From: a virus
IMG/VR virus record: IMGVR_UViG_3300037511_000322
Length of the DNA stretch: 59,526 nt
Strand: one strand, 5' to 3'
The notes beneath the pieces are model-generated. The model searched no databases. It had not been told where the DNA came from and worked only from the letters and a program-made list of their open reading frames with translations. Position numbers and translations under genes: made by a program. Positions within the stretch are counted from its first letter, which is position 1. Every line of letters starts with the position of its first letter. Below, piece after piece: positions 128 through 59,526 of the stretch.

Positions 128-371
128 GGTGGGACTACCCGACATCATCGCATGTGTGGACGGTCGCTTCGTGGCCTTCGAGACCAAGACCCCCGAGAAA
201 CGTCGGAATGTCAGCAAGGCCCAGCAGCGCATTCACGAGCTGATCAGGCGAGCCGGCGGCGTCTGCAGGGTAGTCTGCGGTTCGCAGGAAGCGCTGAGCA
301 TCATCGCTGAACTGAGACTCAATACGCCCGAATCCCAGCAACGCACAGAGCCGCAGGAGGTCACAGACTAA
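27..371 (+). CDS. VRR-NUC domain nuclease (PD-(D/E)xK fold)
   Basis: 114 aa. GLPDIIACVDGRFVAFETK gives the PD...E.K signature of VRR-NUC proteins. An agaggg RBS lies upstream. Confidence 0.85.
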   Translation: MTTQRESAISRGIITELRQRGVFAFKIHGSALMMVGLPDIIACVDGRFVAFETKTPEKRRNVSKAQQRIHELIRRAGGVCRVVCGSQEALSIIAELRLNTPESQQRTEPQEVTD

Positions 372-7358: not shown

Positions 7359-7628
7359 ATGCCACTCGAATCACCCCAAGAGATGCCCAAGGACATGGAT
7401 GAGCTGGATACCATGGTCGCCCGGGCATACAGTCAGGGTATCGACACCGGCAGAAAAGCCGGACGTAGTGATGCTATCGACGCCATCAAGAGGTTCTGGC
7501 GATCGGAATTCAACCTGACCAAGGGCCGTCGTCGTCGAGCTGACCCCGAAGACCCCAAGACTTCAGCAATCCTGGACATCTGGGAGCGGTTCAACAAGAA
7601 GCTGGAGGATGGTACACTGTGGCAGTAG
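7359..7628 (+). CDS. hypothetical protein (89 aa)
   Basis: GAGAAAGGA RBS. First gene after the divergent intergenic region. Confidence 0.6.
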   Translation: MPLESPQEMPKDMDELDTMVARAYSQGIDTGRKAGRSDAIDAIKRFWRSEFNLTKGRRRRADPEDPKTSAILDIWERFNKKLEDGTLWQ

Positions 7629-9700
7629 CACCGAAGCCGGCAGTCGATCTCAACAAAGCCCTGCGCATTATCTCGCGTGCGTGGGGTAAGCAGTCGGGGT
7701 ATTGCTTCTTCCCACACATCGATAGGGAAAAGCAGATCGAGACGGGGGAGCGCCGCGCTGGCTTCCATGAAAACCGAGCCTTCAAGTGGCCTCAGGAAAA
7801 GGCTGCCATCCTGGAACATATGGCCGAACACATCGGTCATGACCTGTACTGGTGTCCCAGTCTCTTCGAGACCCCAGACCGCCAAGCCGAAACTGCCATG
7901 GATGAGCATGCGCTCTGGGCAGATATGGATGAGGCTGACCCACGGATCCTCGAGGGCAACCAAGAGTTCAGGCCCACGGTAGCTTGGGAGTCCTCGCCCG
8001 GTCGATACCAGGCGCTTTGGCTCGGTAATCCCGAGATCGGAGACTTCCAGGGTGCGAGCTGGCCCGGCAATGAGAACCAGCGACTGACTTACTACCTCGG
8101 TGCTGACAAGTCTGGGTGGGATACTACTCAGCTGCTGCGTATTCCGGGCTGGCCAAACTGGAAGCCTGAATACCGGCGCAACGGTAAGCCTCGCATGGGC
8201 AAGCTCCTCTGGGAACGCGGCCCGATGTACGAGATGAGTGACTTCCAAGGCCTTCCCGAGGTCAAGGGCGCACTCACGATGGATAAGCTCGGCGAGGTCA
8301 TTGAGTCTGAGATCAATGCCATCGACCGAGCTAAGGTCATGACGCGGATAAAGCTGAAGCTCAATCAGCGTGCCCGCGATATGCTCTCTGCTCGACAGAT
8401 CAGCGGCGACCGCAGTGAGCAGCTGTGGTATCTCATCCGATGCCTGGCCGATGCTGGCTGCACGGTTCAGGAGATCGTGGCCGTCGTACGACCCTCGGTG
8501 TGGAACAAGTTCGAGGGACGGGCCGATGAGCTCAAGCGCCTCATCACCGAAGCGACGAAGGCTATCGATCAGCGCGATCCGGAAGTTACGGAAGCGATTG
8601 AGGAAGAACAGGCACCAAAGCCTCGCCCCCAACGACTCGCCGCCTTCCTCAAAGACGTCAAGCCGCCCAAGTGGCTGATCGATGGCATCGCCACGGAAGG
8701 CTCGGTTGGCTTCATCGCTGGCGCCCCCAAGTCCTTCAAGTCCTGGTGTGCCCTCGACATGGCGCTGAGTGTCGCCACTGGCAGCCTCTTTCTCGATTAC
8801 TTCCGAGTCATGAAGCCTGGCAGGGTCCTCTACATCCAGGAAGAGGACTCTGCGGTTACAGTCAAGAGCCGCACCAAGAAGATCTGGAAGGGCAAGAGCA
8901 CGGACAAGATGGTGCTGGATTCCGGCGTTGTCTACTGGGTACCCGGCTCCGATGAGGAGTTTGACCCCAACATCGATATCTACCTCATGGAAGGCTTCAC
9001 AGCCTCTGAGGGACACTGGCAGGAATGGCTCGACCAAACGCTGACCGAAGCTACTGCCGAGGACGCCCCCTATGTTCTTGTCATCGTCGACACTCTCATG
9101 AACGTAGCGGGTGATGTCGAAGAGAACAAGAGCCAGCAGATGACCACGAAGATCTTCAAGCCCATGAAGGTTCTCATGCGGAAGCACAACTGCGCTATGC
9201 GCTTCGTGCACCACATGGGCAAGGGCGGAGATGACAAGCGCGGTGGTCAGCGCATGCTGGGCGGTACGGCGAACCACGCATGGGCCGAGGACAGCCTCTA
9301 CATCAGCAGGGTAGAGAGCACCAAGGGCTTCACGGGTCAGATCAAGATGGAGTTCGAGTCCAAGTCCGCCCCCGGTGCTTACTACACCATCTCCGGCCTC
9401 GACAACCATGCCTGGACCCCCTACTTCGAACCCACCAAGCCCAAGGACGATCCCACACCAACGACGCCCGGGCGCAAGGTTCGCGACAAGCCCATGATGA
9501 GGGGTGACAAACACCCCATCGTGGAAATGCTCGAGCAGGGCGGCAGCTGGACTACCAAGGATATCGCCGAGCAGCTCAACCGCAACTACGCCAGTACCTA
9601 CAAAACGCTGCAAAGGCTCGAGGAGAAGGGTACCATCGCCCGCGCCGGCAAGGCCTGGCGAGCTACTGCCGAGGAGTCCGCGCCCGCGACGCGCGCATAA
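7619..9700 (+). CDS. AEP-type primase-polymerase fused to a RepA/AAA_25-type helicase, with a C-terminal winged helix
   Basis: 693 aa. N-terminal domain: ALWADMDEAD (D-x-D) and LLRIPGWPNWK (RxPG.N.K). Central domain: GAPKSFKSW (Walker A-like) and YVLVIVDTL (Walker B). Confidence 0.85.
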   Translation: MAVAPKPAVDLNKALRIISRAWGKQSGYCFFPHIDREKQIETGERRAGFHENRAFKWPQEKAAILEHMAEHIGHDLYWCPSLFETPDRQAETAMDEHALWADMDEADPRILEGNQEFRPTVAWESSPGRYQALWLGNPEIGDFQGASWPGNENQRLTYYLGADKSGWDTTQLLRIPGWPNWKPEYRRNGKPRMGKLLWERGPMYEMSDFQGLPEVKGALTMDKLGEVIESEINAIDRAKVMTRIKLKLNQRARDMLSARQISGDRSEQLWYLIRCLADAGCTVQEIVAVVRPSVWNKFEGRADELKRLITEATKAIDQRDPEVTEAIEEEQAPKPRPQRLAAFLKDVKPPKWLIDGIATEGSVGFIAGAPKSFKSWCALDMALSVATGSLFLDYFRVMKPGRVLYIQEEDSAVTVKSRTKKIWKGKSTDKMVLDSGVVYWVPGSDEEFDPNIDIYLMEGFTASEGHWQEWLDQTLTEATAEDAPYVLVIVDTLMNVAGDVEENKSQQMTTKIFKPMKVLMRKHNCAMRFVHHMGKGGDDKRGGQRMLGGTANHAWAEDSLYISRVESTKGFTGQIKMEFESKSAPGAYYTISGLDNHAWTPYFEPTKPKDDPTPTTPGRKVRDKPMMRGDKHPIVEMLEQGGSWTTKDIAEQLNRNYASTYKTLQRLEEKGTIARAGKAWRATAEESAPATRA

Positions 9701-16584: not shown

Positions 16585-16931
16585 ATGAGCCGAGAAGGTA
16601 CGAGGTAGATCACAAGGTATCTGGGGTGAGAGATCGAGCTGTCCTCGAACGTCAGATGGCCCTGTACTTCGACGCCTATGCCCGGGAAATCAGGCATCAA
16701 CTGCCGCAGACCTTGGTTGCCGGCGACTACGCCCTGCGAGACGTCGACTACACCATGACGTGGTGGCGACGCTTCGCCGGCGAGCCTGTTCTCGTGAACA
16801 AGCTGAGGGGACGAGACAACGCCATCCTTGAGCTGAACGACCTCATCCGCCCGGAGACGCTCGAGAGGATGGGCCGTATCACCGACAGGCCTCGGCTGCT
16901 CTGGCCCTACCTAGGATGGCTGATCGGATGA
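16581..16931 (+). CDS. hypothetical protein (116 aa)
   Basis: GTGA overlap with the upstream peptide. Start at VNEPRRYEV. Confidence 0.55.
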   Translation: MNEPRRYEVDHKVSGVRDRAVLERQMALYFDAYAREIRHQLPQTLVAGDYALRDVDYTMTWWRRFAGEPVLVNKLRGRDNAILELNDLIRPETLERMGRITDRPRLLWPYLGWLIG

Positions 16932-18202
16932 AGCTCCCCATCTGTCAGGCTCTGATCCAGATCAAGCGTAATCCCACGATGTGGCTTTCTCCCATGGCCG
17001 CTCGTGATTGGGTCTCGCGCGTGATCGCCGATCGGTCGGACGATATGACGCTCGAGGAAGCCTTCCAGCTGCACGACGAGACCTTCGGCCCCAAGGTGAA
17101 GGCATCATCGCTCGCCTGCCCCGCCGGCGATCCCTGCCCGGCGACAGGATGCCCCGCCTGTTGCCCCGACTATGACCCCTGCGGGAAGCCGGAATGTGTA
17201 GGATGTCGCAATAGAAAAAGAGCGGAAAACGTGGATCGCACGATCATCAGTGATGTTCATGAGCGAGCGTTCTGGGGCATCCACAGATTCCGGGAGTCCC
17301 CCGACATTCTCGGCTGTACCCTGTGCGGCTGGGGCTACCAGGACCCCATTCATCGGAAGGAGAAGACTATGCACGTACCCGAGGAAACTGACCTGCCCAA
17401 TCTGGCTGAGGCCGAGAAGATCGTCGGTGTAGAGCCCGAGTGGGGGCTCGAGGAGTGCGGCTGGGTAGTACAACATGCGACCCCCGAGACGCCGGACGAG
17501 TACTGCGGCGAGGAGGTACCCCCGGGCCAAGAATACTGCGGCAAGCACCAGCGTATGGCCGCCAAGATGATCAGGCATGAGGGCGGTGTGGGTGACCCCA
17601 AGCCGGAACCTCAGCTCGCCTGTAAGTACCACTGCTTCGAGGATCAGGTGAACTATCCGGAGTGCCCGGTGCACGGCATCTCAGCTGAGGCCGGTGTGGA
17701 GACACCCCTCGCCGACTCGGCACTGAAGTCTGGTCTTCCCATCAGCCGGGACCACGAGCCCTTGCCGCACTCGGTCACGGTGGTCATCGAGAAGATCCGC
17801 GAGGCCTACGCGGCAGGCAACGGGCCGGAGAACATCCTAGCCTTCCCGATCGGCCTCCTCAACGAGCTCTGCAACCTCGCCACCCAGTACCCGCACCCGG
17901 ACGGCGACGGCATGGTACTCGGTCCCGAGATCTTCGCCGGTCCCAACGAGGAGGTCATCTCGTGGAAGGGGCAGAACTACTACAAACGAGTTCCCACCGA
18001 CAAGGACCGGGAGCTTATCGCCAAGAACGCCAAGGCGACGATCGAGCGCCGGGACAAAGAGCGGGCCGAGAGGCTGCTGCGTGAGACGGCGATGCACCAC
18101 GCTGTCGAGCTCCACAAGGCCGGCCTCAGTGCGGGGAACATCCCCACCAGGAGCATCACTCAGTCCGCGGACGACATCCTGGAATGGCTGAACAAGAGCT
18201 GA
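16928..18202 (+). CDS. large Cys-rich hypothetical protein (424 aa)
   Basis: ATGA overlap with the upstream gene. Dense Cys clusters such as CPAGDPCPATGCPACCPDYDPCGKPECVGC. Confidence 0.65.
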   Translation: MKLPICQALIQIKRNPTMWLSPMAARDWVSRVIADRSDDMTLEEAFQLHDETFGPKVKASSLACPAGDPCPATGCPACCPDYDPCGKPECVGCRNRKRAENVDRTIISDVHERAFWGIHRFRESPDILGCTLCGWGYQDPIHRKEKTMHVPEETDLPNLAEAEKIVGVEPEWGLEECGWVVQHATPETPDEYCGEEVPPGQEYCGKHQRMAAKMIRHEGGVGDPKPEPQLACKYHCFEDQVNYPECPVHGISAEAGVETPLADSALKSGLPISRDHEPLPHSVTVVIEKIREAYAAGNGPENILAFPIGLLNELCNLATQYPHPDGDGMVLGPEIFAGPNEEVISWKGQNYYKRVPTDKDRELIAKNAKATIERRDKERAERLLRETAMHHAVELHKAGLSAGNIPTRSITQSADDILEWLNKS

Positions 18203-47841: not shown

Positions 47842-47870
47842 TTGATTGGGTCCTCTCGGCATGATAGGGT
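47842..47870 (+). promoter_or_regulatory. sigma70-type promoter, near-leaderless
   Basis: TTGATT-N17-TAGGGT-N5-ATG(47876). Confidence 0.5.
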
Positions 47871-47875
47871 CAGCT

Positions 47876-49456
47876 ATGGAAACGGAATTCTTCGTCCCCG
47901 ACGCAGTCAAACATGGCTATGGGGGGATACATCGGGTTCGACGGACCTGGTATGGACGAAGGAAGGGCATGGCAACTAAGTACAAGTGGAAGACTCGACC
48001 TTACCACCATCAGGTGAAGGCGGTCAAGAAGCTGCTGAGCACGGGCTTCGGTGGAGCACTCCTGATGGCTCCTAGGACAGGCAAGACCAAGACGCTGATC
48101 GATTACGCATCGTGTCTCTACCTTGCCGGCAAAGTCCAGCGGGTACTGATCTTCTGCCCGCTCTCAGTCATCGGGGTGTGGGAACGAGAAATCGCCGCGC
48201 ACTGCCCCTTCGACTATCGAGTCACGGTCTGGGACAAGACTGCCCGCAAGAAGGGTATCCAGCTGCCGAGGATCGGTCGAGATATCCTCGACTTCGTGAT
48301 CATCAACTACGACGCGCTCTCCACACCTGGTGCTGTCGTGCGTGAGGATGACTACGGCAACAAGATCCGTTCTCGACGCCGTGGTGGTCGCTACGACATT
48401 CTAAAAGCGTTCGAGCGGTGGCAGCCGCATCTGATCGCCCTGGACGAGTCTCACCGCATCAAGTCGCCGACCGCGGTCAAGTCTCGGATGATGCATAAGT
48501 TGGGCAAGGTCGCGGACTACAGGGTCATCATGACCGGTACCGTTGTGACGAAGAAGAAGCGCATCTTCGACATCTGGTCACAGTGGCGGTTCTTGTACCC
48601 GGACCGATTCCCCATGACCTTCTCCGAGTTCAAAGCTACCTACGGCATCTGGCGTGATATGGGTGGCTGGTCCAAATGGATCCGCAATCAGAACGAGGAT
48701 GACCTCCATGCGTTGATTCACAACGATGCCTTCGCTATCCAGCGAGAGGATTGCTTCGATCTACCGCCTCGGCGCAACCAGATCATCCCCATCGAGCTGG
48801 ACGAGTCGGCTCCGTACTACGACCAGATGGCCAAGGAGATGGTAGCCAAGATCCACACGGGTGAGCTGACGGTCGCCTCGATCTCGCTGGTTCAGACGCT
48901 ACGCCTCCGACAGATCACATCTGGCCTCGCCAAGACGGAACCTTCGCCTGAGTTTCCCGAGGGTCGCCTTGTTCGTGTGGGTGGCGAGAAATACAACGTT
49001 ATGTTCGAGCTGCTGGCTGACCTATTCGAAGCGGGCGAGAAAGTCGTGGTGGGGGCTTTGTTCAAGGGTGATCTTGCCGCGGTCGAGCAGATGTGTACTA
49101 AGATGAAGGTTGACTGCTTCGTTATCAAGGGCGGCGTCAAGCGCCGAGATCGTGACACGGCAATCGACAGGTTTCGTAGGCACGAGGGCCCCGCATGCTT
49201 CGTTGCACAGCCTGCTGCGGCTGCGGAGGGTATCGATTTGTCAACCGCGTCAATCTGCATTTGGTACAGCCTGACGCCGAGCTATGTTCAGTACCAGCAA
49301 TTTGAGGATCGCATCGCTCTGTCCAAAATCGGTACGACGTACATGTACTTGATTGCCAAGGATACCGTCGATGAACTGCTCTACGAGACCCTACAGGAAG
49401 ACGGGGACGTCGCCAGGGCTATCATGCGTGCACCGGAACGTCTGTTGCGAGAATGA
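47876..49456 (+). CDS. SNF2-family (DEAD/H-like) helicase
   Basis: LLMAPRTGKTKT (motif I), LIALDESHRIKSP (DExH), and C-terminal helicase motifs (FVAQPAAAAEGIDLS). Confidence 0.85.
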   Translation: METEFFVPDAVKHGYGGIHRVRRTWYGRRKGMATKYKWKTRPYHHQVKAVKKLLSTGFGGALLMAPRTGKTKTLIDYASCLYLAGKVQRVLIFCPLSVIGVWEREIAAHCPFDYRVTVWDKTARKKGIQLPRIGRDILDFVIINYDALSTPGAVVREDDYGNKIRSRRRGGRYDILKAFERWQPHLIALDESHRIKSPTAVKSRMMHKLGKVADYRVIMTGTVVTKKKRIFDIWSQWRFLYPDRFPMTFSEFKATYGIWRDMGGWSKWIRNQNEDDLHALIHNDAFAIQREDCFDLPPRRNQIIPIELDESAPYYDQMAKEMVAKIHTGELTVASISLVQTLRLRQITSGLAKTEPSPEFPEGRLVRVGGEKYNVMFELLADLFEAGEKVVVGALFKGDLAAVEQMCTKMKVDCFVIKGGVKRRDRDTAIDRFRRHEGPACFVAQPAAAAEGIDLSTASICIWYSLTPSYVQYQQFEDRIALSKIGTTYMYLIAKDTVDELLYETLQEDGDVARAIMRAPERLLRE

Positions 49457-49540: not shown

Positions 49541-50170
49541 GTGATCATCATTGAGGGTCCCGATGGGAGTGGAAAATCCACTCTCGTGAACAAGCTGGCC
49601 CAGGAGCTCAGACTCCCAGTCGCCGACAAGGTTGTTGCCTCGGATACCACCGCCATGACTGACTTGGTGAAGTGGACTGAAGACAACGTCGCACGAGGGT
49701 TCCAGCCGACCATCTTCGACCGTCACCGGCTGATCTCGGAACCTATCTACGGCCCGATCCTGAAGCCTCGACAGGATCCCAGCTTCTGCGACCTGAGTTG
49801 GCTGTCCCAGCAGCTCTGGCTGTTCTACGGCTGCAAGCCGGTGATCATCTACTGCCTGCCTGACATCCGGACGGTACGTGCGAACGTGGCCCGAGAAGAC
49901 ACAGACAACTCGGTAGTCGCCAGCCGCATCGCTGCGATCTACGCCGCCTATGTCAACCGTGCCACCCTCGACTTCACTCGAGGTGTGGGGCGACTGTACA
50001 ACTACGAAACTACTCGGTTCGACGACATTGTCGGCTGGGTCAACTTCAAGCTCGACGGAAGGATTTCCACCGATGACCGAGTCCGCCTCCCGTTCCCTCG
50101 CACCGAAGGCATTCATTCCGGGACAGACGACGGAGGACGCCGCCCGGCAGCGCGCCGGTCTCTCCGCTGA
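49541..50170 (+). CDS. thymidylate-kinase-like dNMP kinase
   Basis: GTG start. IIIEGPDGSGKST P-loop and FDRHRLISEPIYG (DR(Y/H)..S motif). The 3' end overlaps the next gene by about 100 nt. Confidence 0.7.
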   Translation: MIIIEGPDGSGKSTLVNKLAQELRLPVADKVVASDTTAMTDLVKWTEDNVARGFQPTIFDRHRLISEPIYGPILKPRQDPSFCDLSWLSQQLWLFYGCKPVIIYCLPDIRTVRANVAREDTDNSVVASRIAAIYAAYVNRATLDFTRGVGRLYNYETTRFDDIVGWVNFKLDGRISTDDRVRLPFPRTEGIHSGTDDGGRRPAARRSLR

Positions 50171-50564
50171 GAAGCAGCCGGTGGTCAATGCTCTCCAGAT
50201 GATCTTCGAGGGCCAGCGACACCTCATGGCGAAGTACCACGACCGAGAGGCGGCGAACGGTTCGCCGGTGGTGGACGAGTCTCTGGAGGGTAATCTCGAC
50301 AGCCGCCAGGTTCAGGCTCGTATCCACGAGCTGTACGGCTACCTGACCCGCGAGCTGGCCGAGGCACTCCAGGAGCTCAAGGGCAAGCCCTGGAAGCTGA
50401 ACTTCGACCCGACCGACCGGGACGCCTTCGTCAATGAGATCGGCGATGCTTTCCACTTCTTCGTGGAGCTCTGCATCACGGCCGGCATGACCGCGGAGGA
50501 TCTGCACCGGGCCTATTTCCGCATGCACCAGAAGAACAACACCCGTCTCGCCGGCACCTACTGA
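50073..50564 (+). CDS. all-alpha NTP pyrophosphohydrolase (dimeric d(C/U)TPase / MazG-like)
   Basis: Start at MTESAS, after GGAAGGA. LTRELAEALQELKGKPWK and EIGDAFHFFVEL match the EXXE / EXXD helices of this superfamily. Confidence 0.6.
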   Translation: MTESASRSLAPKAFIPGQTTEDAARQRAGLSAEKQPVVNALQMIFEGQRHLMAKYHDREAANGSPVVDESLEGNLDSRQVQARIHELYGYLTRELAEALQELKGKPWKLNFDPTDRDAFVNEIGDAFHFFVELCITAGMTAEDLHRAYFRMHQKNNTRLAGTY

Positions 50565-50590
50565 CCAGCTCTACACCCAAGGGGGAAACA

Positions 50591-50743
50591 GTGTCGCGCC
50601 GAATCAGCTCCATACGGATGCAGCAAATCCGGGAGACTGCGCACACTGTCGGAGCGATTGCCGCCGCTACCTTTCTGTCTTTCATGGCAGTGGGGGCGGC
50701 GGCCTTCGCCGTTCTGATGGTTCACCTCAACGAGAAGATCTGA
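50591..50743 (+). CDS. 50-aa single-TM peptide (not in the ORF track)
   Basis: GTG start after AAGGGGGAAACA. VGAIAAATFLSFMAVGAAAFAVLMV. TGATG coupling to the next gene. Confidence 0.4.
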   Translation: MSRRISSIRMQQIRETAHTVGAIAAATFLSFMAVGAAAFAVLMVHLNEKI

Positions 50744-51777
50744 TGAGAAGTTACCGAGCAAGTACCATGACCGCCCTCCACGAGCAGATGATCAACTCGC
50801 TGGTCTGGGCGAAGGCCTCAGAGCTCGACGTCATTTCCAATGTCGATGTCCAGATCCACAATGTAATGGGCTACGCCGAGTCCATGGATTGGGAGATGGA
50901 CCTCAAGACCTTCTGGCTGACCAAGTCGAGATGGTCCATGATGGTCCGGCAATACCTGGACCCCGAACAGCTGCAAGCGTGGATCGAGCAATGCACGACG
51001 AAGATCGGGACCAAGGGCCGCGGGATCGCTGTTCTGCGCACTAACATCGTCAAGCCGAGAGGTGGGGCCGCGACGGGCCACAGCAACAAGGAGACTCGAC
51101 GCTGGGGCTCTTGCATGCTGACGCTGAGCTACAAGGCGAAACCGAAGCCACAGATCACTCTGCACTCGCGGACGTCCTACCTGGGCTACATTGGCGCTCT
51201 CGACCTGAGCGTGGCATGGATGGCCGGCAAGTACTTGGCCCGTGAGATGGGTATCAGGGTCGAAGACATTTCATTCCTCTGGTACAACGAGGCCATCCAG
51301 TGGCACAACTTCAAGTCGATGGCTTGGTTGCTGTGCAATCCCGACGATGAGCAGCGGCGAGTCTACCGTAAACTTCTCACCGCGGGACCCAGTAGGCTCG
51401 ATCCCGAGGACATGGATCTACTCAACACAGCCCCGGCACTCAGCATGACCAGGGACTGGTTGAAGAAGGTTCGCATCGAGGATCGCGACGGCAAGACTCT
51501 CGGCGACATGACCTACAACACCTACCGACGAATTCGTCGGCGGTGGCACACCGAGGTCCTGGGGTACGAGAAGGCCAAGACCTTCGAGGGCTGGTCCTAC
51601 TACAAGCAGGGGCCTCAGAAGGGGGAACAGAAGGAGTACTTCAAGGCATATCAGCCGCTGCCCTCAGTCATGATCAGTGACTGTGATTTCTCCCCGATCA
51701 AGATGCCCCTGGGGATCAAGTACGGGGGCGACTTCGTACCCGGCGCAGATGAGGACGATGATGACGACGACGAGTGA
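50743..51777 (+). CDS. hypothetical protein, possibly a divergent thymidylate-synthase-fold enzyme
   Basis: 344 aa. GRGIAVLRTN...RRWGSCMLTLSY...ITLHSRTSYLGY can be threaded by eye onto ThyA SRRIIVSAWN...PCH.FFQFY...LYQRSCDVFLG. Poly-Asp tail. The fold assignment is unverified. Confidence 0.4.
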   Translation: MRSYRASTMTALHEQMINSLVWAKASELDVISNVDVQIHNVMGYAESMDWEMDLKTFWLTKSRWSMMVRQYLDPEQLQAWIEQCTTKIGTKGRGIAVLRTNIVKPRGGAATGHSNKETRRWGSCMLTLSYKAKPKPQITLHSRTSYLGYIGALDLSVAWMAGKYLAREMGIRVEDISFLWYNEAIQWHNFKSMAWLLCNPDDEQRRVYRKLLTAGPSRLDPEDMDLLNTAPALSMTRDWLKKVRIEDRDGKTLGDMTYNTYRRIRRRWHTEVLGYEKAKTFEGWSYYKQGPQKGEQKEYFKAYQPLPSVMISDCDFSPIKMPLGIKYGGDFVPGADEDDDDDDE

Positions 51778-52030
51778 ACCCGATGAGCCACCACTCATCG
51801 ACGTGGGCAAGATCATGAGGCTGGAAGATCTGCCAGCTATTCAGGTTCAGGAGCCAAAGCCCAGGAAGCGATTCCTGCGCGTGGTTTTTCTGAACGGCAG
51901 TGAACGCTGGTACGAGCTCGACGACGAGGGCTGGCGCTTCGATGCCATGACCCGAGAGCTGGTCATCGCCAAGGGTGTGGGACGTAAGCACATCCCTCTC
52001 GACAACGTCGAATACTACAGTCCGGAGTAG
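51758..52030 (+). CDS. hypothetical protein (~90 aa)
   Basis: Overlaps the poly-Asp end of the upstream gene. The start is ambiguous (51749, 51758 or 51761). Confidence 0.45.
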   Translation: MMTTTSEPDEPPLIDVGKIMRLEDLPAIQVQEPKPRKRFLRVVFLNGSERWYELDDEGWRFDAMTRELVIAKGVGRKHIPLDNVEYYSPE

Positions 52031-52037
52031 GAAGACA

Positions 52038-52898
52038 GTGAAGGTCTACCAGAACATGGCCTTCGCCGACATGGTCGGGCAGATGTACCAGGACTTCCTG
52101 GGCGCTGCCCGGCCCGTCGACGTTGGGCAATGGCAAGGGCGCGACATCAAGGGCGATGCCTCAAAGGTCACTTGGGAAATCAGGGAAGCCGTCCTGCAGC
52201 TCGGGATGCCCGACTCGATCGAAGGGGCGCAGCGCGACATCTCGCCGAACCTGCCCTGGGCTGAGGATCACTTCCAGGAGCGAGTCGGGCGCAAGCCGCT
52301 CAACCCCCCACCCTCCAGTGGCTGGTGGCCGTTCGCCCAGGCGGGCCACGTCGAGCACGTGAACGAGAAGGGGATGTTCTCCCACACATACCCTGAGCGC
52401 TTCTGGCCCAAGCACGCAGGTGACTGGGAAGCGAGTCTGGGTCAGCTCGGTGCACACGGCGAGTGGTGCGAAACCAAGGGGATCCGGTTCAAGTATGGCG
52501 ACCTCGACGATGTGGTCTGGCGGTTGATCAAGAACCCCATGACGAGGCAGGCTTACCTGCCGGTCTGGTTTCCTGAGGACACTGGGGCGCCCGACGGCGA
52601 ACGAGTGCCCTGCACCATCGGGTACCACTTCATGATCCGCGAGGGACGACTCCACGTCAGCTACACCATACGAGCCTGCGACTTCATGCGCCACTTCAAG
52701 GACGATGTCTACATGGCGATTCGTCTGGGGCAGTGGGTTCGGGATCAGCTCCCGCACGAGGGCAGCTTGACCATGGGTGAGCTGACCATGCACATCGGCT
52801 CGTTCCACATCTTCGCCGGCGATCGACCTATGGTTAAGCACCTCGCCCATCAGTACGTCAGCGGCAAGAACCGACGGCTCCTGGAGGCTCTCCGATGA
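52038..52898 (+). CDS. thymidylate synthase family protein (candidate pyrimidine-C5 hydroxymethylase or methylase)
   Basis: GTG start after GGAAGA. IKNPMTRQAYLPVWFPED and VPCTIGYHFMIREGRLHVSYTIRACDFMRHFKDD align with ThyA NDPDSRRIIVSAWN and [34 protein letters not shown]. The catalytic Cys context is conserved. Confidence 0.75.
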   Translation: MKVYQNMAFADMVGQMYQDFLGAARPVDVGQWQGRDIKGDASKVTWEIREAVLQLGMPDSIEGAQRDISPNLPWAEDHFQERVGRKPLNPPPSSGWWPFAQAGHVEHVNEKGMFSHTYPERFWPKHAGDWEASLGQLGAHGEWCETKGIRFKYGDLDDVVWRLIKNPMTRQAYLPVWFPEDTGAPDGERVPCTIGYHFMIREGRLHVSYTIRACDFMRHFKDDVYMAIRLGQWVRDQLPHEGSLTMGELTMHIGSFHIFAGDRPMVKHLAHQYVSGKNRRLLEALR

Positions 52899-53410
52899 CG
52901 CTTCCCCTTCAGTGGGCATGGGACCCAGGCAAGAGACCCTCGACCGACTGGGTGTTGATGCAGACTGCGTTCGCCTGGTCGACCAAGAGCACATGTCCGA
53001 GAGCCCAGGTCGGAGCCGTAGTCTCGAGAGACGGGCGCAGTTTCTCTAGCGGGTACAATGGGGCACCAAAGGGCATGAAGCACTGCGACCATGGGTGCAA
53101 CTGCAAGCCGGATCCCTTCGAGCCGATCCTGCTGAACAGCGATCACATGGAGGGCTGCAACAGTCAGAAGCCCTGCAAGAACGTGGTTCATGCCGAGGCA
53201 AACGCGCTCGCCTTCGCGGCTCGATATGGTGTGGGAACTGATGGCGCCGAGATCCACTGCACCCGTATCCCTTGCTTGAACTGTGCTGGACTGATCATCA
53301 ATGCCGGCATAGCTCGCGTGGTTTGGTACGAGGAGCACAGGGACATGGAAGGTCTCCTGCGCCTGGGCGAGGCAGGTCTGGAAGTGATAAGGTGGAGCTA
53401 TGAGGGGTAA
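52895..53410 (+). CDS. dCMP deaminase
   Basis: VHAEANA and PCLNCA zinc-binding motifs. ATGA overlap with the upstream gene. Confidence 0.85.
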   Translation: MTLPLQWAWDPGKRPSTDWVLMQTAFAWSTKSTCPRAQVGAVVSRDGRSFSSGYNGAPKGMKHCDHGCNCKPDPFEPILLNSDHMEGCNSQKPCKNVVHAEANALAFAARYGVGTDGAEIHCTRIPCLNCAGLIINAGIARVVWYEEHRDMEGLLRLGEAGLEVIRWSYEG

Positions 53411-55970
53411 TCCAAACTGCAGTGACTGCAAGCTGCATCGTAATGCAGCCGCTGTCTGTGTCATGGGTGACGGTCCGCGCGATGCTGACATCATGGTTAT
53501 CGGCAAGATGCCGAACTCGGACAAGAATCAGACCGCGCTGGAACAGCAGTTGGAGGAGGTTGGCCTCGACCCGAAGCGGGTCTACTATACTAGTGCTCTG
53601 AAGTGCGTGAACTGGGAGGATAGCGCCAGTAACGCCCATGTCAAGGCTTGCCGGCAATATCTCGAACAGGAGATCGCCGAGGTCAAGCCCACACACATCC
53701 TCGCTCTCGGTAACGAAGGCTTGAACGCCGCGGCAGGTAAGTCCGGCATCACGAAGTACCGCGGTCAGCTCTTCGAGAAGGACGGCTACACCGTCATCCC
53801 GACCATCTCCCCGATGGCGGTGAACCGTAACCCCGGCCAGCGACCTGGCTACATGGCTGATCTGCGGCTCTTCGCGAACACCTACCTGGGCAAGGCTACC
53901 GGGGTCAAGGTTCCGAAGTGGGCTTTCATCGACACTAAGACAAAGCTGAAGAAGCTCAAGACGATTCTCGAGCAGACGCATCTGATCAGCTTCGACATCG
54001 AGACCACGGTTCACAACCTCGGCGAGTTCGACCCGAACGCCAAGATCATCACGATGGCGGGTACTTGCCTAGTTACCGAGCTCGACGCTCAGACTGGTAA
54101 GGAGCGCGACAGGATCTTCGGGTTCTGCCTGCCCCTGTACCACCCTGAGTCGCCGTTCCAGACGACCTGGAAGTCGGTGCTGAAGTTCCTTAAGCCGGCT
54201 CTCGAGGGAATTCCGAAGGGGGTCGCTCAGAACGGCAAGTTCGACTGCCGATGGCTGACTCACTTCGGTGTCAACATGAACCACACCTTCGATACCATGC
54301 TGGCGATCCACCTGCTCAACGAGAACATCGCCAAGGGTCTGAAGCCGAACGCCCAGGCGAGGCTGGGAGTGCCACCTTGGGGCATCGACACCAAGGATCT
54401 GCTAAGCGAGGCCCTCGCCGAGGTCGCTGAGTACAACTTCCTCGACACATACTACACCTATCTCCTGTACAAGCAGCTGAAGCAGGAGCTGATCGAGCAG
54501 CCTAGGTTGCTGCGGATCATGACGAAGTTGTACATGCCCGCGAGCCGCGATCTGGTGCCTACGGAACGCCGAGGAGTCTGGCTGGATATCGACCGGCTGC
54601 GTGAGCGAAAGCCCAAGGTCGAGGAGAAACTCCGCAGCATCGAAGACCAGTTGAAGGAGTACCTCCCCGACCCCGACTCGGATGACTGGCCCATGGACTC
54701 CAAGGGTCGGAAGAAGCTCGAGGTCAACTTCAACGCAAGTCGCTTCGCGCGGTGGTTCCTCTTCGAATGGATGGCGCTGCCGGTCCTCGAACGAGGCAAG
54801 GAGAAGCCCGATGGTTCACCAGGCGACCCGAGCATGGCGGAGGATGTCCTCCTTCATCTACAGAAGGATCATCCACACAAGGTGATCGATCTGATGCTCG
54901 AGCGAGTGTCCTGGCAGAAGAACCTCAGCTCGTTCTTCAACGCCTACGAAGTCATGTATGACGATGAGCACAGGGTGCACACGACCTTCAAGCTCGCCGG
55001 CACGGTGACTGGTCGACTCAGCTCGGGCAAGGACACCACCGACAAGATCTCGGGCAAGGCGAATCTTCGCGGCGTCAATCTTCAGCAGGTCCCTCGAGAT
55101 CCGCTGATCCGAGGTATGTTCGGGGCACCCTACGGCTGGTCGTTCGTCGAGGCAGACTACAGCCAGATCGAGCTAAGGATCGCCGCGTTCATCGCCAATG
55201 AGCGACACATGATTGCCCTGTACCAGCAGGGCGCGGACATCCACATGACAACTGCGATGGCGGTGACGGGTCTGCCGAAGGCCAAGGTCACGAAGGAGAT
55301 TCGCAAGAAGGTGGGTAAGCCGGTTAACTTCGGTTTTCTCTACGGTATGGGCTGGCGGAAGTTCATTGAGACCGCGTTCAACAACTACGGCGCGGTATTC
55401 AATGAGCAGGAAGCTCAGGCCTACCGACGAGCTTACTTCGAGCTCTTCCCCGACCTGCCTCGATGGCACGAGCGTCAGCGCCGACTTGTCAGGCGATACG
55501 GAAGGGTGCAGAGCCCCTTGGGAAGAATCAGGCACCTGCCCGATATTCACTCGCCCGAGAAGGGGGTCCAGGCTGAAGCGGAGCGACAGGCGATCAACTC
55601 GCCCGTGCAGGGCTTTGCCAGTGACATGGCTCTTCTCAGCATGACCATCATCAACCAGAAGTTCCGAGAGGCGGGCATCGCTGGCCACTGTCTCGGCCTA
55701 GTACACGACGCCATCAACTTCGAGATCCGAGATGATGAGCTCGAGCGAGCCCTGCCCATCATCAAGGATACGATGGAAGATCCGGTACCCCTACGCAAGA
55801 AGTTCGGGACAATCCTCACTATCCCCATCGTGGCTGACCTCAAGGTGGGACGACACTGGGGCGATGCCCACGAGGTAGAGGATCCCAATGTCATCTACGA
55901 CCCCGACCTCCTCAACCACTGGTTGTCGGAGAATCACCCCTCGTACCAGCATCTGTCGAAAGTAGCCTAG
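53400..55970 (+). CDS. family A DNA polymerase with 3'-5' exonuclease and an N-terminal family-4 UDG-like domain
   Basis: 856 aa. N-terminus: CSDC...IMVIGKMPN...ALKC...KAC...TISPMAVNRNP (UDG4 scaffold). ISFDIETT (Exo I). EADYSQIELRIAAF (motif A), KPVNFGFLYGM (motif B), LVHDAINFE (motif C). Confidence 0.9.
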   Translation: MRGNPNCSDCKLHRNAAAVCVMGDGPRDADIMVIGKMPNSDKNQTALEQQLEEVGLDPKRVYYTSALKCVNWEDSASNAHVKACRQYLEQEIAEVKPTHILALGNEGLNAAAGKSGITKYRGQLFEKDGYTVIPTISPMAVNRNPGQRPGYMADLRLFANTYLGKATGVKVPKWAFIDTKTKLKKLKTILEQTHLISFDIETTVHNLGEFDPNAKIITMAGTCLVTELDAQTGKERDRIFGFCLPLYHPESPFQTTWKSVLKFLKPALEGIPKGVAQNGKFDCRWLTHFGVNMNHTFDTMLAIHLLNENIAKGLKPNAQARLGVPPWGIDTKDLLSEALAEVAEYNFLDTYYTYLLYKQLKQELIEQPRLLRIMTKLYMPASRDLVPTERRGVWLDIDRLRERKPKVEEKLRSIEDQLKEYLPDPDSDDWPMDSKGRKKLEVNFNASRFARWFLFEWMALPVLERGKEKPDGSPGDPSMAEDVLLHLQKDHPHKVIDLMLERVSWQKNLSSFFNAYEVMYDDEHRVHTTFKLAGTVTGRLSSGKDTTDKISGKANLRGVNLQQVPRDPLIRGMFGAPYGWSFVEADYSQIELRIAAFIANERHMIALYQQGADIHMTTAMAVTGLPKAKVTKEIRKKVGKPVNFGFLYGMGWRKFIETAFNNYGAVFNEQEAQAYRRAYFELFPDLPRWHERQRRLVRRYGRVQSPLGRIRHLPDIHSPEKGVQAEAERQAINSPVQGFASDMALLSMTIINQKFREAGIAGHCLGLVHDAINFEIRDDELERALPIIKDTMEDPVPLRKKFGTILTIPIVADLKVGRHWGDAHEVEDPNVIYDPDLLNHWLSENHPSYQHLSKVA

Positions 55971-56313: not shown

Positions 56314-57369
56314 GTGCCAGGCCTTTACTATGACGAGAGTGTTGGCAAATACGTTGTCACGCACTCCATGATCAAGTCCTTCCGTGGCTGTCCACGACAA
56401 ACGCTGTACAAGCAAGTGGACCGGCTCAAGCCGAGGATCATCGGGCAGCCACTGAAGCGCGGTACCTGGATGCACTACCTTCTCGAGGAGCACCACGGCG
56501 GTCGAGACTGGAAGCTCATGCACAAGAAGCTGAGTGCCCAGTTCGCCGAGCTCATGGATGAGGAGAGGGATCACTATGGTGATCTGCCAACGGAATGCTA
56601 CCGCATGATGGAAGCCTACGTCTGGCACTACGCGAATGACCCCTGGAAGGTCCACGAGGTCGAGTTCACGCTGGAAGCGGAATTCCCAGATGGCACCCTG
56701 TACCGGGGCAAGGTCGATGCTCTGATCGAGAACCAATTCGGTCTCTGGATCGCCGACCATAAGACACACGGCAACTTGCCCGATCATACCTTCAGGTTGC
56801 TCGATGCTCAGTCGGCTTTGTATCTCTGGGCAGCCAAGAAGATGGGGCTTCCCGTACAGGGCTTCATCTGGAATTACTTGCGGGCCAAGACACCCTCCAC
56901 ACCCGAGATGCTGAAGAATGGTAGCCGGCTCTCGAAGCGGCTTGGGGAGACTGACTACCTCACCTTCACTCGCGAAGTGCAGCGGCTCAAGCGAGAAGAG
57001 GGGTATCGGATTCGAGCTGAGGATGTCGAGATGCAGCGTCGACTTCGTGCTCAGCGATACGTGCCCGGCGAACCTCAGCTCTCCCCATTCTTCCGCCGCG
57101 ATGTCCTGGAGAAGGACGACGACATGCTGAAGCGAGTCGCCGGCGAGGCCTACCACACGGCGAAGCGGATGGCAAAGTATCCATTCCATCAGCGTGACGT
57201 CGTAGAGCGCAATGTCGACCCGTTCAAGTGCAGTCGATTCTGCAGCTACCGTGATCTCTGCACTATCGAACTGATGGGGGGTAACACCCGCACATTGATG
57301 AAGAACTACAAGGTCGGCGATCCCCAGGATTACTATCACGACAGGGCGGGTGAGCTCCGTGGCGCATGA
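56314..57369 (+). CDS. Cas4/RecB-like PD-(D/E)xK exonuclease with a Cys cluster
   Basis: GTG start after GAGGAGA. GKVDALIE...LWIADHKT (D...D.K). Cys at FRGCPRQ plus CSRFCSYRDLC gives the 1+3 Cys pattern of Cas4-type nucleases. Confidence 0.8.
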   Translation: MPGLYYDESVGKYVVTHSMIKSFRGCPRQTLYKQVDRLKPRIIGQPLKRGTWMHYLLEEHHGGRDWKLMHKKLSAQFAELMDEERDHYGDLPTECYRMMEAYVWHYANDPWKVHEVEFTLEAEFPDGTLYRGKVDALIENQFGLWIADHKTHGNLPDHTFRLLDAQSALYLWAAKKMGLPVQGFIWNYLRAKTPSTPEMLKNGSRLSKRLGETDYLTFTREVQRLKREEGYRIRAEDVEMQRRLRAQRYVPGEPQLSPFFRRDVLEKDDDMLKRVAGEAYHTAKRMAKYPFHQRDVVERNVDPFKCSRFCSYRDLCTIELMGGNTRTLMKNYKVGDPQDYYHDRAGELRGA

Positions 57370-57599: not shown

Positions 57600-58409
57600 A
57601 TGGCAGAGAAGGACTACAACGCCATCGCCCGGAAGCGCATCCAGCGACCGGCCAACATCAAGCGGCTGCCCAAGCTGCACATCTACGCACGACAGAAGAA
57701 GGGCAAGACCACCTTCAGCGTCAGTGCAGGTGTGGAGAAGACGCTCGTCCTCGACCCGGAGCATGGGACTGACCTCATGCAGTCCAAGAACCCCCATGTC
57801 TGGCATATCGAGCGATGGGAGGACATGGATGAGGCTTACAACTACCTCCGTTCGGGTGACCATCCCTACGAGTGGGTCTCGGTCGACGGTCTCACCAAAC
57901 TCAGCAACATGGCGCTGAAGTACACCATGCGACTGCAGGAAGAACGATCCATCGACCGGATCCCTGGTCAGGTTCAGCAGAGGGACTACGGCCGCGCTGG
58001 CGAGGTCATGAAGACCATGCTGACCAACTTCCACAATCTCCCCCAGGGCGTCGTCTTCACCAGCCAGGAGCGGATGCAGGAGGTGGTCGACTCCGAGGAA
58101 GACGAGGATGTCGAGACCGAGGGGGCTGAGTTCGTCCCCGATCTGCCCAAGGGGGTCAGGGGCTATGTGAACTCCCTGGTCGACGTGATCGGGCGACTCT
58201 ATGTTGCCAAGATCGAGCATCCTCGGGATCCCGAGAAGATGCTCGCCCAGCGTCGACTCTGGATCGGAGAGTCACTCAAGTACGATACCGGATACCGATC
58301 GGACTTCACTCTACCCGACATGGTGAAGGCCCCCTCCATTCCGAAGCTGGTAAGTCTCATGCAGACCGGTCAGCTCCCAGTCCGGGCCGCCAAGAAGGCT
58401 GCGGCCTAA
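57600..58409 (+). CDS. RecA-like ATPase (AAA_24 / Sak4-like)
   Basis: LHIYARQKKGKTTF (Walker A) and VSVDGLTKL (Walker B-like). It is followed by a DUF669-like gene, the usual partner. Confidence 0.75.
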   Translation: MAEKDYNAIARKRIQRPANIKRLPKLHIYARQKKGKTTFSVSAGVEKTLVLDPEHGTDLMQSKNPHVWHIERWEDMDEAYNYLRSGDHPYEWVSVDGLTKLSNMALKYTMRLQEERSIDRIPGQVQQRDYGRAGEVMKTMLTNFHNLPQGVVFTSQERMQEVVDSEEDEDVETEGAEFVPDLPKGVRGYVNSLVDVIGRLYVAKIEHPRDPEKMLAQRRLWIGESLKYDTGYRSDFTLPDMVKAPSIPKLVSLMQTGQLPVRAAKKAAA

Positions 58410-58513: not shown

Positions 58514-59197
58514 ATGGCTACTGCTGCCGCTAAGGCCGCAACCGCAGTTCTCGACTTCTCCGGGGTCAAGGATCGCAGCGAATCCGGCATCAACAAGAAG
58601 CGGGTGCCCGCCGGTGACTACCTGGCGAAGGTGGCCCGGGTCGAGGACCGTCCGGTCAAGGACACCAAGGAACCCCAGTGGATGTACGTCATCTCGCTGG
58701 AGTCGGTGCGGGGCCGTGCCTACCCGTACTACTGCAAGCTCGAGGCGAACCAGCTCTGGAAGCTGCGCAACCTGTTCCTCGCCTGCGGTGTCGCGATCCC
58801 GAAGAAGAAGGTCCGGCTCGACCCGAACAAGATCGTCGGCAAGTCGCTCGGCGTGACCATGGAGGACGACGAGTACGAGGGCAAGCTCCAGTCGGTCATC
58901 GCCGAGGTCTTCCCCGCGTCGGAGCTGAACGAGGACAACCCGGGCAGCGACCCCGACGACGAGGACGAGGAGGACCAGGAGGACGAGGACCAGGAGCCCG
59001 AGGACTCCGACGAGGAGGAAGAGGAGGAAGAGGAGGAGGAAGAGGAGGAAGAGGAGGAACCCGAGCCGGCGCCCCGTCGACGTGCCCCGGCCAAGAAGGC
59101 GGCTGCCTCATCCAAGGCTCGCATCCCCGGCCAGCGCAAGGCCGAGCCCGAGGTGACCGACGACGAGCTGGACGAGCTCGACATCGACGATATCTGA
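58514..59197 (+). CDS. DUF669-like ssDNA-binding protein with a poly-Glu tail
   Basis: LDFSGVKD...VPAGDYLAKVARVE...LWKLRNLFLACGV...GKSLGVTMEDDEYEGK matches the DUF669 pattern as I recall it. The C-terminus has 16 consecutive Glu. Confidence 0.6.
   Translation: MATAAAKAATAVLDFSGVKDRSESGINKKRVPAGDYLAKVARVEDRPVKDTKEPQWMYVISLESVRGRAYPYYCKLEANQLWKLRNLFLACGVAIPKKKVRLDPNKIVGKSLGVTMEDDEYEGKLQSVIAEVFPASELNEDNPGSDPDDEDEEDQEDEDQEPEDSDEEEEEEEEEEEEEEEEPEPAPRRRAPAKKAAASSKARIPGQRKAEPEVTDDELDELDIDDI
59012..59059 (+). repeat. GAG/GAA trinucleotide tract encoding E16
   Basis: gag gag gaa units read directly. Lies inside 58514..59197. Confidence 0.9.
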
Positions 59198-59349: not shown

Positions 59350-59405
59350 GGGCGGCCCGACTTACCTAACTCTCCTCGGTCAAAGGATAGATAGTCGGGC
59401 CGCCC
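59350..59405 (+). repeat. 13-bp perfect inverted repeat in the 5' UTR of the VRR-NUC gene
   Basis: GGGCGGCCCGACT-N30-AGTCGGGCCGCCC. The right arm spans the junction (it corresponds to window bases 1-6). Confidence 0.8.
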
Positions 59406-59526
59406 TTCTCTGTAGAGGGCTGGTAATGACAACACAACGAGAATCCGCGATCTCTCGAGGCATCATCACCGAGCTTCGTCAACGGGGAGTCTTCGCCTTC
59501 AAGATCCATGGTAGTGCCCTGATGAT
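59400..59526. repeat. Exact 127-bp terminal overlap, copy 2
   Basis: Identical to 1-127. It duplicates the RBS and first 101 nt of the VRR-NUC gene. Confidence 0.95.

Follow-up and report, generated by a model that had tools for sequence, protein, structure and literature searches.

Why would a bacteriophage maintain two divergent proteins of the thymidylate synthase (TS) fold within one short run of nucleotide-metabolism and replication genes, and which base, if any, would such an enzyme set deliver to its DNA? The question is raised by positions 49,541–55,970 of the virus record IMGVR_UViG_3300037511_000322 from IMG/VR, referred to below as the window (the whole stretch of DNA analyzed; 59,526 nt, 59% GC). 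Eight co-oriented open reading frames (ORFs) follow each other there on the plus strand, all in the places indicated by the first-pass annotation of this DNA and all with a coding-type GC content at the third codon position (GC3 of 0.70–0.81). The two TS-fold proteins are designated here as A (50743..51777) and B (52038..52898); they are accompanied, e.g., by a kinase, a pyrophosphatase, a deaminase, and a family A DNA polymerase (PolA). We cautiously favor the reading that the block 49541–55970 represents a pre-replicative pathway that furnishes the phage polymerase, instead of dCTP, with a deoxycytidine nucleotide modified at C5, following the logic known from the phages T4 and Xp12.

Protein B: A Cytosine-Type Member of the Thymidylate Synthase Family

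The product of 52038..52898 (plus strand; the gene call is identical to that of P0240) belongs to the TS superfamily, as the first-pass annotation held: its score against PF00303 (Thymidylat_synt) exceeds the cutoff (26.8 vs. 24.3 bits), its AlphaFold2 (AF2) model displays the TS fold, and the counterparts of Cys146, Arg166, and His207 of E. coli ThyA are in place. The best sequence match in the PDB, both of B itself and of a five-member B profile, is the N229D mutant of L. casei TS, followed, in the case of the profile, by the CMP hydroxymethylase MilA (2e-6) and the T4 dCMP hydroxymethylase (9.5e-5). The AF2 model (predicted local distance difference test score, pLDDT, of 82.8, with low confidence at residues 100–150) resembles TS, MilA, the T4 dCMP hydroxymethylase, and the phage enzyme AfhB about equally (Foldseek template modeling (TM) score 0.56–0.63, E ~1e-10). 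Matches of B to Clostridium phages, covering only 39% of its length, were set aside.

Residues were counted in a MAFFT alignment of 87 family members together with E. coli ThyA, T4 gp42, and the TS homolog of phage PaMx74. The MAFFT and HMMER alignments agree from ThyA position 126 onward, and the statements made here are limited to this part of the protein. All 87 members possess the catalytic Cys146 (Cys192 in B), Arg166 (Arg212), and His207, and the position of Asp169 (Asp215) is occupied by Asp in 83 of them and by Glu in four. At the base-discriminating position of Asn177, where an alignment made by eye had initially placed an Asp, profile alignments confirm Asp and not Asn (Asp223 in B; 87/87), HMMER against L. 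casei TS and MilA being in accord with MAFFT against ThyA and gp42. His147 is replaced by Thr or Ser across the family (Thr193 in B), the pair Arg126–Arg127 by Arg–Gln (Arg170–Gln171; 87/87), and Leu143, three residues before the catalytic Cys, by Arg (Arg189; again 87/87); Arg–His stands at the positions of Leu172–Gly173 in 81 and Phe at that of Tyr209 in 79 of the 87 proteins. In other words, Asn177, His147, the arginine pair, and the hydrophobic Leu143 of the canonical, dTMP-forming ThyA are all missing from B. Positions 177 and 147 are those which, in the MetaGPA work, best tell TS homologs on contigs with modified cytosine from their counterparts on unmodified contigs (PMC8670742), and the combination of Asp177 with a residue other than His147 in B favors the cytosine reading.

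Asp177 and Thr147 are shared with T4 gp42 as well, and both the T4 dCMP hydroxymethylase and MilA rank among the best PDB matches by sequence and by fold. Together with a dCTPase-like enzyme, a kinase, and a deaminase as in T4, and with the absence of a dihydrofolate reductase (DHFR) gene from the block, which fits an enzyme regenerating tetrahydrofolate, this could mean that B is a T4-type dCMP hydroxymethylase and that the virion harbors 5-hydroxymethylcytosine (5hmC), possibly tailored further. Such an identity, entertained at the outset, is improbable. The T4 enzyme needs an acidic residue three positions before the Cys (Asp145, activating the substrate water), and its D145N variant is inactive (PMC6400193); this position is Arg in each of the 87 B proteins, hence 5hmC is not the default prediction for B. 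In addition, no glycosyl-, carbamoyl- or other hydroxyl-using transferase was found with Pfam and PHROG among the ~30 genome proteins scanned, in line with the first impression that a glycosyltransferase is missing. The D169N substitution, a signature of the flavin-dependent 5-hydroxy-dCMP synthases (PMC13326640), does not occur in the B family either.

One B homolog, P0329 (407 aa), contains an in-frame insertion of ~130 aa between residues 113 and 114 with the LAGLIDADG-like motif LAAMVDGDGSI; it may represent an intein or the insertion of a homing endonuclease. Genes encoding TS are classic targets of such elements.

Protein A: A Predicted TS Fold Hidden at the Sequence Level

The 344-aa product of 50743..51777 (plus strand) falls into the family phrog_13667 (E 1.2e-109; function unknown). 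Neither Pfam nor NCBIfam yielded a match, phmmer and hmmsearch against the PDB returned unrelated proteins only (E 0.12–1.2), and hhalign against a five-sequence B profile gave no match. The core of A had been threaded by eye onto that of ThyA in the first-pass annotation, and structure prediction bears this out, pointing to a TS fold and not to an unrelated one. The AF2 model, built from 150 homologs with 33–88% identity, has a pLDDT of 92.3 and a predicted TM score of 0.89; a Foldseek search of the PDB yielded 79 matches at E<=1e-3, and all 50 matches listed belong to the TS superfamily. They include the dCMP hydroxylase AfhB of phage HY126 (2e-7), MilA (1e-6), many thymidylate synthases, and the T4 dCMP hydroxymethylase (2.6e-4), with TM scores normalized to the target of up to 0.55; the top rank of AfhB may merely reflect its minimal TS core of ~217–238 aa. 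In BFVD, the structural neighbors of A comprise uncharacterized phage proteins, TS and dCMP hydroxymethylases, and the protein from the same cassette slot in the Pseudomonas phage PMBT14 (E 1.2e-7).

When the A profile was enriched with representatives at 50% identity, hhalign aligned it collinearly with a TS profile (A 11–264, ThyA 2–258; probability 38%, E 3.4e-4). The alignment equates Cys124 of A with Cys146 of ThyA, Arg143 with Arg166, Tyr146 with Asp169, Asp154 with Asn177, and His188 with His207. The spacing is similar (19 vs. 20 residues from Cys to Arg and 11 vs. 11 from Arg to Asp), and the order of secondary-structure elements in the model is like that in TS: a strand after the Cys, a hairpin strand with the Arg, and a helix with the Asp in its first turn. 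Conservation was counted over 125 divergent members, among them A', a shorter protein (256–279 aa) occupying the A slot of the same cassette in proteobacterial phages. Arg143 is found in all 125, Cys124 and Gly122 in 124 each, Tyr71 in 123, and Asp154 in 121, the other four having Glu. The equivalent of Asp169 is Tyr146 in the A clade (Tyr in 90/125) and Glu in A', so A has neither the folate-orienting Asp169 nor the D169N change of the 5-hydroxy-dCMP synthases. Judging by its model, A is thus a cryptic TS-fold protein that keeps the nucleophilic Cys, the phosphate/thiolate Arg, and the cytosine-type Asp; with Cys, Arg, Asp, and Tyr invariant, it is probably catalytic.

The motifs RRWGSCM and HSRTSY are present in A, as is a helical insertion (~193–279) carrying the Arg-rich helix YRRIRRRWH. 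The protein ends in an acidic tail, ADEDDDDDDE (51745–51774), and 59 of its 80 homologs from IMG/VR, along with some A' proteins, have at least six Asp or Glu among their last 15 residues. Acidic tails mediate replisome contacts in proteins of T7 and T4; by analogy, the tail of A suggests docking to the replication machinery. The family is small: 251 clusters at 50% identity were collected (E<=1e-3, 1.84 billion representatives).

The Asp residues of A and B also bear on a pathway that would replace thymine instead, with an hmU-type base or a hypermodified thymidine as in the phages SPO1, M6, and ViI. A TS homolog and a kinase likewise start the 5-hydroxymethyl-dU pathways (PMC5889632, PMC8989533), and an Ackermannviridae metagenome is the source of one BFVD neighbor of A. 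In 87/87 B proteins and, at the equivalent position, in 121/125 A proteins, Asp stands in for the Asn177 that specifies uracil, which makes the hmU-type alternative of the first-pass annotation unlikely; moreover, A has no Pfam match at E<=0.01, a level that would also take in the aGPT-Pplase families insofar as Pfam covers them, and the scans of the window revealed no second kinase of the 5-HMUDK type, no radical S-adenosylmethionine enzyme, and no pyridoxal-phosphate-dependent enzyme. Thymine replacement therefore seems highly improbable.

Distribution of the Cassette and Linkage of A with B

In IMG/VR, A was found in 80 loci, and B lies directly downstream of it in all 79 that extend far enough. 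The genes are arranged as helicase, kinase, pyrophosphatase, A, B, deaminase, PolA, and nuclease, with no more than 30 nt between A and B in 27/79 loci; A and B abut or overlap in the phages GTE2, FF47, Zuko, PMBT14, and Serbin. In GenBank, A occurs in 85 records, all of them from phages of actinobacterial hosts (Gordonia, 68; Mycobacterium, 9; Streptomyces, 4; Microbacterium, 2; Curtobacterium and Mycobacteroides, 1 each), whereas 96 records contain a near-full-length B match and 18, mostly of proteobacterial phages, contain A'. In ten GenBank phage records inspected, A or A' was situated directly upstream of B without exception. The shared gene order (79/79 IMG/VR loci, ~100 GenBank phages) is well beyond chance. 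The cassette is also present in the therapeutic phage Muddy, where gp49 is the kinase, gp48 the dUTPase-like protein, gp47 A, gp46 B, gp45 the deaminase, and gp44 PolI.

The carriers of A' include Yersinia phage P744, Serratia phages Serbin, Tlacuache, and Opt-155, Pseudomonas phages PMBT14, Almagne, and Lebethron, Brevundimonas phages Strzyga and Polewnik, and contigs from Manatee Spring; two records annotate the protein as ‘pyrimidine hmase synthase’. A' is linked to A by hhalign (probability 30%, GSCM...HSRT being aligned with GYCM...HYRAT), by a match to phrog_13667 at E 0.006, by the above-mentioned Foldseek match between the A model and the A' of PMBT14, and by the identical position in the cassette; BLAST against 150 A-family representatives failed to recover A', bar one weak match. 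Between the actinophage and proteobacterial clades, B retains ~40% and A ~16% identity. The kinase and the pyrophosphatase appear in the same order in every clade.

Such strict co-occurrence and adjacency, with frequent start/stop overlap, invites the alternative that A is not an independent enzyme but one half of an obligate TS-fold heterodimer with B, where it would give or receive an active-site Arg, regulate B, or dock the complex to the replisome via its acidic tail. TS enzymes function only as dimers, whose subunits share the active sites, and an A–B hetero-oligomer is conceivable since, of the arginines that reach across the subunits in TS, B has lost Arg127 (Gln in 87/87). The much faster divergence of A between the clades and the acidic ends of 59/80 A proteins fit a partner of this kind as well. 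At the same time, the near-invariance of Cys, Arg, Asp, and Tyr71 across 125 A proteins would be hard to explain for a purely structural subunit, and no A–B fusion was encountered among 508 retrieved homologs. Overall, an A that is such a partner and no independent enzyme is rather unlikely.

Two phages inform on whether the pair simply makes dTMP. Brevundimonas phage Strzyga possesses A' and B without a deaminase; in Manatee Spring Myoviridae ctfzr933 (MW202455, 1839–4509), ThyX is encoded just upstream of A'–B, and a DNA ligase occupies the deaminase slot. Because the deaminase is missing from both and ThyX is present in the latter, the pair is not simply a dTMP route, and ctfzr933 is the clearest case of this kind. 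The earlier idea that the second TS-fold protein could make dTMP is likewise unlikely, with Asp at the 177-equivalent position of A, Asp169 lacking from it, and ThyX encoded besides the pair in ctfzr933.

Proposed Pathway and Its Product

Folds, conserved residues, synteny, and co-occurrence provide the ground for the favored pathway, and its substrates, product, and the resulting state of the virion DNA would be as follows. The pyrophosphatase of the dUTPase_2 family would convert dCTP (and dUTP) into dCMP (and dUMP). B, with Cys and Asp169 intact and Asp at position 177, would bind dCMP and add a one-carbon unit at its C5. The modified dCMP would then be phosphorylated by the P-loop kinase, the host nucleoside diphosphate kinase would complete the triphosphate, and PolA, the presumed incorporating polymerase, would insert it into the DNA. 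The deaminase, acting on dCMP or a 5-substituted dC nucleotide, could channel some of the cytosine nucleotides into the thymine branch (dCMP to dUMP, or 5-methyl-dC to a dT nucleotide). A would work obligately with B, either as a hetero-oligomeric partner or in a second step on the product of B, in which addition of the Cys to C6 would re-form an exocyclic methylene. The kinase, the dCTPase-like NTPase, the cytosine-type TS homolog, and the deaminase reproduce, at the family level, the logic of T4 gp1/gp56/gp42/cd, as had been recognized already in the first-pass annotation.

The arrangement of B, the deaminase, and PolA also matches the pattern of deaminase-bearing metavirome contigs predicted by MetaGPA to contain modified cytosine, in 70% of which the deaminase lies within 3 kb of a TS homolog, compared to 6% of those predicted to be canonical, according to a 2024 preprint (bioRxiv 10.1101/2024.12.05.627091). 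The TS homologs near those deaminases are mostly N177D, their common neighbors are an NTP pyrophosphatase (NTP-PPase), DNA_pol_A, and an exonuclease, and five of the seven deaminase-linked TS homologs made 5-methyl-dCMP (5mdCMP) in vivo (bioRxiv 10.1101/2024.12.05.627091).

The same work provides an argument for canonical virion DNA: the tested deaminase linked to TS(N177D) was 5mC-selective and converted 5mdCTP to dTTP (bioRxiv 10.1101/2024.12.05.627091). The block could then serve nucleotide salvage and an alternative thymidylate route, where B methylates dCMP, the deaminase yields a dT nucleotide, the pyrophosphatase and the kinase are a plain dUTPase and a plain Tmk, and uracil is kept out for the sake of a polymerase with a uracil-DNA glycosylase (UDG) domain. 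The GenBank annotations ‘dUTPase’ and ‘thymidylate kinase’, the UDG-superfamily domain that PolA indeed bears, and the failure to find a report of odd DNA in the well-studied Muddy are in keeping with this explanation. It is hard to reconcile with the retention of A' and B in Strzyga and ctfzr933, both without a deaminase and the latter with ThyX; it leaves the obligately linked A without a role; and the synteny is overrepresented among contigs with a predicted cytosine modification (bioRxiv 10.1101/2024.12.05.627091). We consider it rather unlikely.

Several further points weigh against the proposed pathway. B conforms to none of the product signatures published for hydroxymethylases, 5-hydroxy-dCMP synthases, and PaMx74-type enzymes, and its identity to the PaMx74 TS is only 28% over 99 aa. 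In its N-terminal, cofactor-binding half, MAFFT, HMMER, and the AF2 secondary structure each place the counterparts of Glu58, Trp80, and Tyr94 differently; as this half is not reliably alignable, the use of folate by B is argued from Asp169 alone. The sequence link of A to TS is weak (hhalign 38%), its residue equivalences depending on hhalign and topology, and the substrates of the kinase and the pyrophosphatase are family-level guesses. In the literature, no base-composition or restriction data were found for Muddy, FF47, GTE2, P744, PMBT14, or Serbin, nor did any mention of unusual DNA turn up for Muddy and its relatives, which have been sequenced and engineered for years.

With all this taken into account, a modified cytosine in the virion seems reasonably probable from the residues and gene content. 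As to its identity, 5-methylcytosine (5mC) may be named tentatively as the leading candidate; an undescribed derivative requiring A is rather unlikely, as is, to a similar extent, the lack of any stable modification, and 5hmC is less likely still. A more specific proposal, to be regarded as speculative, is that A and B constitute a two-component TS-fold system making a cytosine C5 modification other than 5mC, 5hmC, and 5-hydroxycytosine (5hoC). The basic residues of B (Arg143 and Arg–His at 172–173) and the folate-independent site of A would, in this case, guide to the exocyclic methylene a nucleophile that is neither water nor hydride.

Other Genes of the Block

The conserved replication and nucleotide block begins upstream of the eight ORFs with an SNF2-type DNA helicase (47846..49456, +; SNF2-rel_dom E 3e-17, Helicase_C E 1.8e-10, phrog_62 E 5.8e-110), which is upstream in 77/80 related loci. 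The P-loop (d)NMP kinase (49541..50170, +) matches phrog_761 ‘thymidylate kinase’ (E 2.9e-15), in agreement with its initial designation as Tmk-like, and AAA_33 of Pfam (29 bits vs. the gathering cutoff of 27), with weak P-loop matches to Tmk, Cmk, and dNK; it is present in 77/80 loci. The NTPase, described at first as all-alpha and d(C/U)TPase-like, proved to belong to the all-alpha NTP pyrophosphohydrolases of the dimeric dUTPase/dCTPase (dUTPase_2) family (50073..50564, +, with the start at 50073 or 50199; PF08761 29.2 bits vs. the cutoff of 22.9, phrog_12184 E 1.7e-29). Its C-terminal motif aligns with that of the T4 gp56 dCTPase (29% identity over 51 aa), and tblastn detected it in 68/80 loci.

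Two small ORFs stand outside the conserved core. The 50-aa hydrophobic ORF (50591..50743, +), listed previously as a membrane peptide, exists in the sequence without any family match; tblastn found it in 1/80 related loci only, which renders it doubtful as a gene. The ORF between A and B, noted before as one of about 90 aa, is there as well (51749..52030, +; ~93 aa); it is accessory and weakly conserved, with tblastn matches in 4/80 loci, all of them close relatives.

Downstream of B, the zinc-dependent deaminase of the dCMP/dCTP family (52895..53410, +; PF00383 E 1.4e-20, MafB19-deam E 1.3e-11, phrog_174 E 1.3e-51) corresponds to the dCMP deaminase of the first-pass annotation and is found in 76/80 loci. 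In Pseudomonas phage PMBT14, the ‘dCMP deaminase’ (7614–8573) is ~320 aa long, about twice the usual size, which suggests a fusion with another domain in the PMBT14 clade.

The replicative Pol I was likewise named correctly: 53400..55970 (+) encodes a family A DNA polymerase (PF00476 E 3.5e-74) with a 3'-5' exonuclease (PF01612 E 1.3e-9) and an N-terminal UDG-superfamily domain (53400–53850; PF03167 E 6.4e-17). The latter reads GKMPN at the position where family-4 UDGs have GEAPG. It may be an active glycosylase, a sensor of uracil or of a modified base, or inactive; such a domain would be relevant if the phage shuts out dUTP or uses modified C. Farther downstream, a PD-(D/E)XK (Cas4-like) exonuclease (56314..57369, +; PF12705 E 7.1e-19, phrog_1218 E 9.8e-83) is conserved in 67/80 loci, and a Sak4-like ssDNA-annealing ATPase (57600..58409, +; phrog_124 E 2.7e-40), located in the same position in FF47, P744, PMBT14, and Serbin, concludes the conserved block.

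Genome and Probable Host

An exact direct terminal repeat of 127 bp (1–127 identical to 59400–59526) indicates that the window is a complete phage genome (~59.4 kb) from a metagenome, either circularly closed or with direct terminal repeats. Genes for the large terminase, portal, major head protein, tape measure, tail proteins, and endolysin were recognized; tRNA genes are absent from the whole window. A megablast search of the region against phages returned short matches in PolA and the A gene only, at ~72% identity, hence there is no close cultured relative. The B homolog P0314 (59% identity; ‘thymidylate synthase [Streptomyces sp. NPDC002248]’) is situated on a 58,676-bp NCBI contig, and the A homolog P0039 on one of 59,169 bp. 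Both contigs are probably whole phage genomes inside actinobacterial assemblies and hint at an actinobacterial host for this phage group.

Palindromic restriction sites of 4–6 bp show no avoidance in the window, e.g., CCGG (428 observed vs. 407 expected), GATC (457 vs. 478), and SalI sites (47 vs. 45). This would be compatible with a global protection of the DNA, and is too weak to count as evidence for it.

Some other genes of the window deserve mention. The largest protein without a Pfam or PHROG match is encoded by a 428-aa ORF (16916–18202, +) with a strong coding signature (GC3 0.79); its function could be one not yet recognized, with post-replicative tailoring of the DNA among the options. 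At 371–1000 (+), an Rv2179c-like 3'-5' exoribonuclease domain (E 6e-9) was found, and 7619–9700 (+) encodes a RepB-primase/AAA_25 primase-helicase that ends in a winged-helix (TrmB/MarR-like) domain. The product of 58514–59197 (+) matches phrog_14876 (labeled ‘DNA polymerase’; E 1.3e-56) and ends in a poly-Glu/Asp tract with ~40 acidic residues; it looks like an accessory replication protein or one resembling the single-stranded DNA-binding proteins.

Novelty and Significance

The first-pass annotation could not match the paired TS arrangement to a described system, which turned out to hold in part. The cassette logic and the synteny of TS(N177D), deaminase, PolA, and NTP-PPase are already known (bioRxiv 10.1101/2024.12.05.627091). 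In the literature searched, no description was found of an obligate pairing in which the second TS-fold family is cryptic, of the atypical basic active site of B, or of the A family as such, and motif searches of supplements for A and B came back empty.

To our knowledge, all pre-replicative pyrimidine modifications described so far in phage DNA start with TS homologs that act on mononucleotides. New chemistry and tools have come with each further branch, i.e., 5hmC, 5mC, 5hmU, and, in 2025–2026, 5hoC. Here, a protein family labeled ‘hypothetical’ in at least 85 GenBank phages emerges as a cryptic TS-fold family, probably of enzymes, and the pair is present in well-studied, easily grown phages such as Muddy, FF47, GTE2, Zuko, Triscuit, PMBT14, and Serbin. 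Should the modification be real, it would bear on phage therapy (immune sensing of Muddy, restriction evasion, CRISPR engineering), on the interpretation of actinophage host range, and on enzyme discovery; should the two-component proposal hold, over 100 cultured phages, Muddy included, would have a new base in their DNA. One may also speculate that a confirmed modification might explain why two of the seven deaminase-linked TS homologs gave no 5mdCMP when assayed by themselves in the MetaGPA work.

Comparison with Known Systems

Among the characterized enzymes, MilA, the CMP 5-hydroxymethylase of mildiomycin biosynthesis (PDB 5b6d, 5jnh), ranks second among the sequence matches of the B profile (E 2e-6), is found at the top of the fold matches for both A and B, and shares with B Asp177 and the Thr after the Cys. 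It differs in having Asp at position -3 from the Cys, in its ribonucleotide substrate, in belonging to an antibiotic pathway, and in lacking a paired second TS-fold gene. The 5-hydroxy-dCMP synthases (RB69 gp48, DLP3 gp80, and HY126 AfhB; PDB 9iqu, 9iqc) are top Foldseek PDB matches of both A and B and likewise exemplify a cytosine-type TS fold that has departed from canonical folate chemistry; their D169N is absent here, the position being Asp in B, Tyr in A, and Glu in A'.

T4 employs the gp56 dCTPase, the gp42 dCMP hydroxymethylase, the gp1 dNMP kinase, and the cd deaminase along with a canonical td, i.e., two TS-fold enzymes. The present phage has the same four enzyme classes and two TS-fold proteins per genome; B resembles gp42 in Asp177 and Thr147, and the pyrophosphatase shares the C-terminal motif of gp56. 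Unlike in T4, B bears Arg at the position of Asp145 of gp42, A is not a canonical td (its Asp is of the cytosine type, Asp169 is lacking, and it escapes detection by sequence), the genes lie together in a single tight operon beside a family A polymerase, and no glucosyltransferase was found.

According to the 2024 preprint, 5mC takes the place of C in Xp12 and PaMx74, and the TS homolog of PaMx74 was grouped there with a TS shown to make 5mdCMP (bioRxiv 10.1101/2024.12.05.627091). PaMx74 possesses the pyrophosphatase, TS, and cd together with DHFR, and no A-like gene (PaMx74_55 gave no match to the A profile); its TS has Asn at position 143 instead of the Arg of B, and the Arg–His of B at 172–173 is a further difference. 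In other respects, the block resembles Xp12, PaMx74, and the MetaGPA contigs in combining an NTP-PPase, a TS homolog with Asp177, a deaminase (PF00383 and MafB19-deam), and DNA_pol_A with an exonuclease, and its deaminase is 34% identical to the cd of PaMx74.

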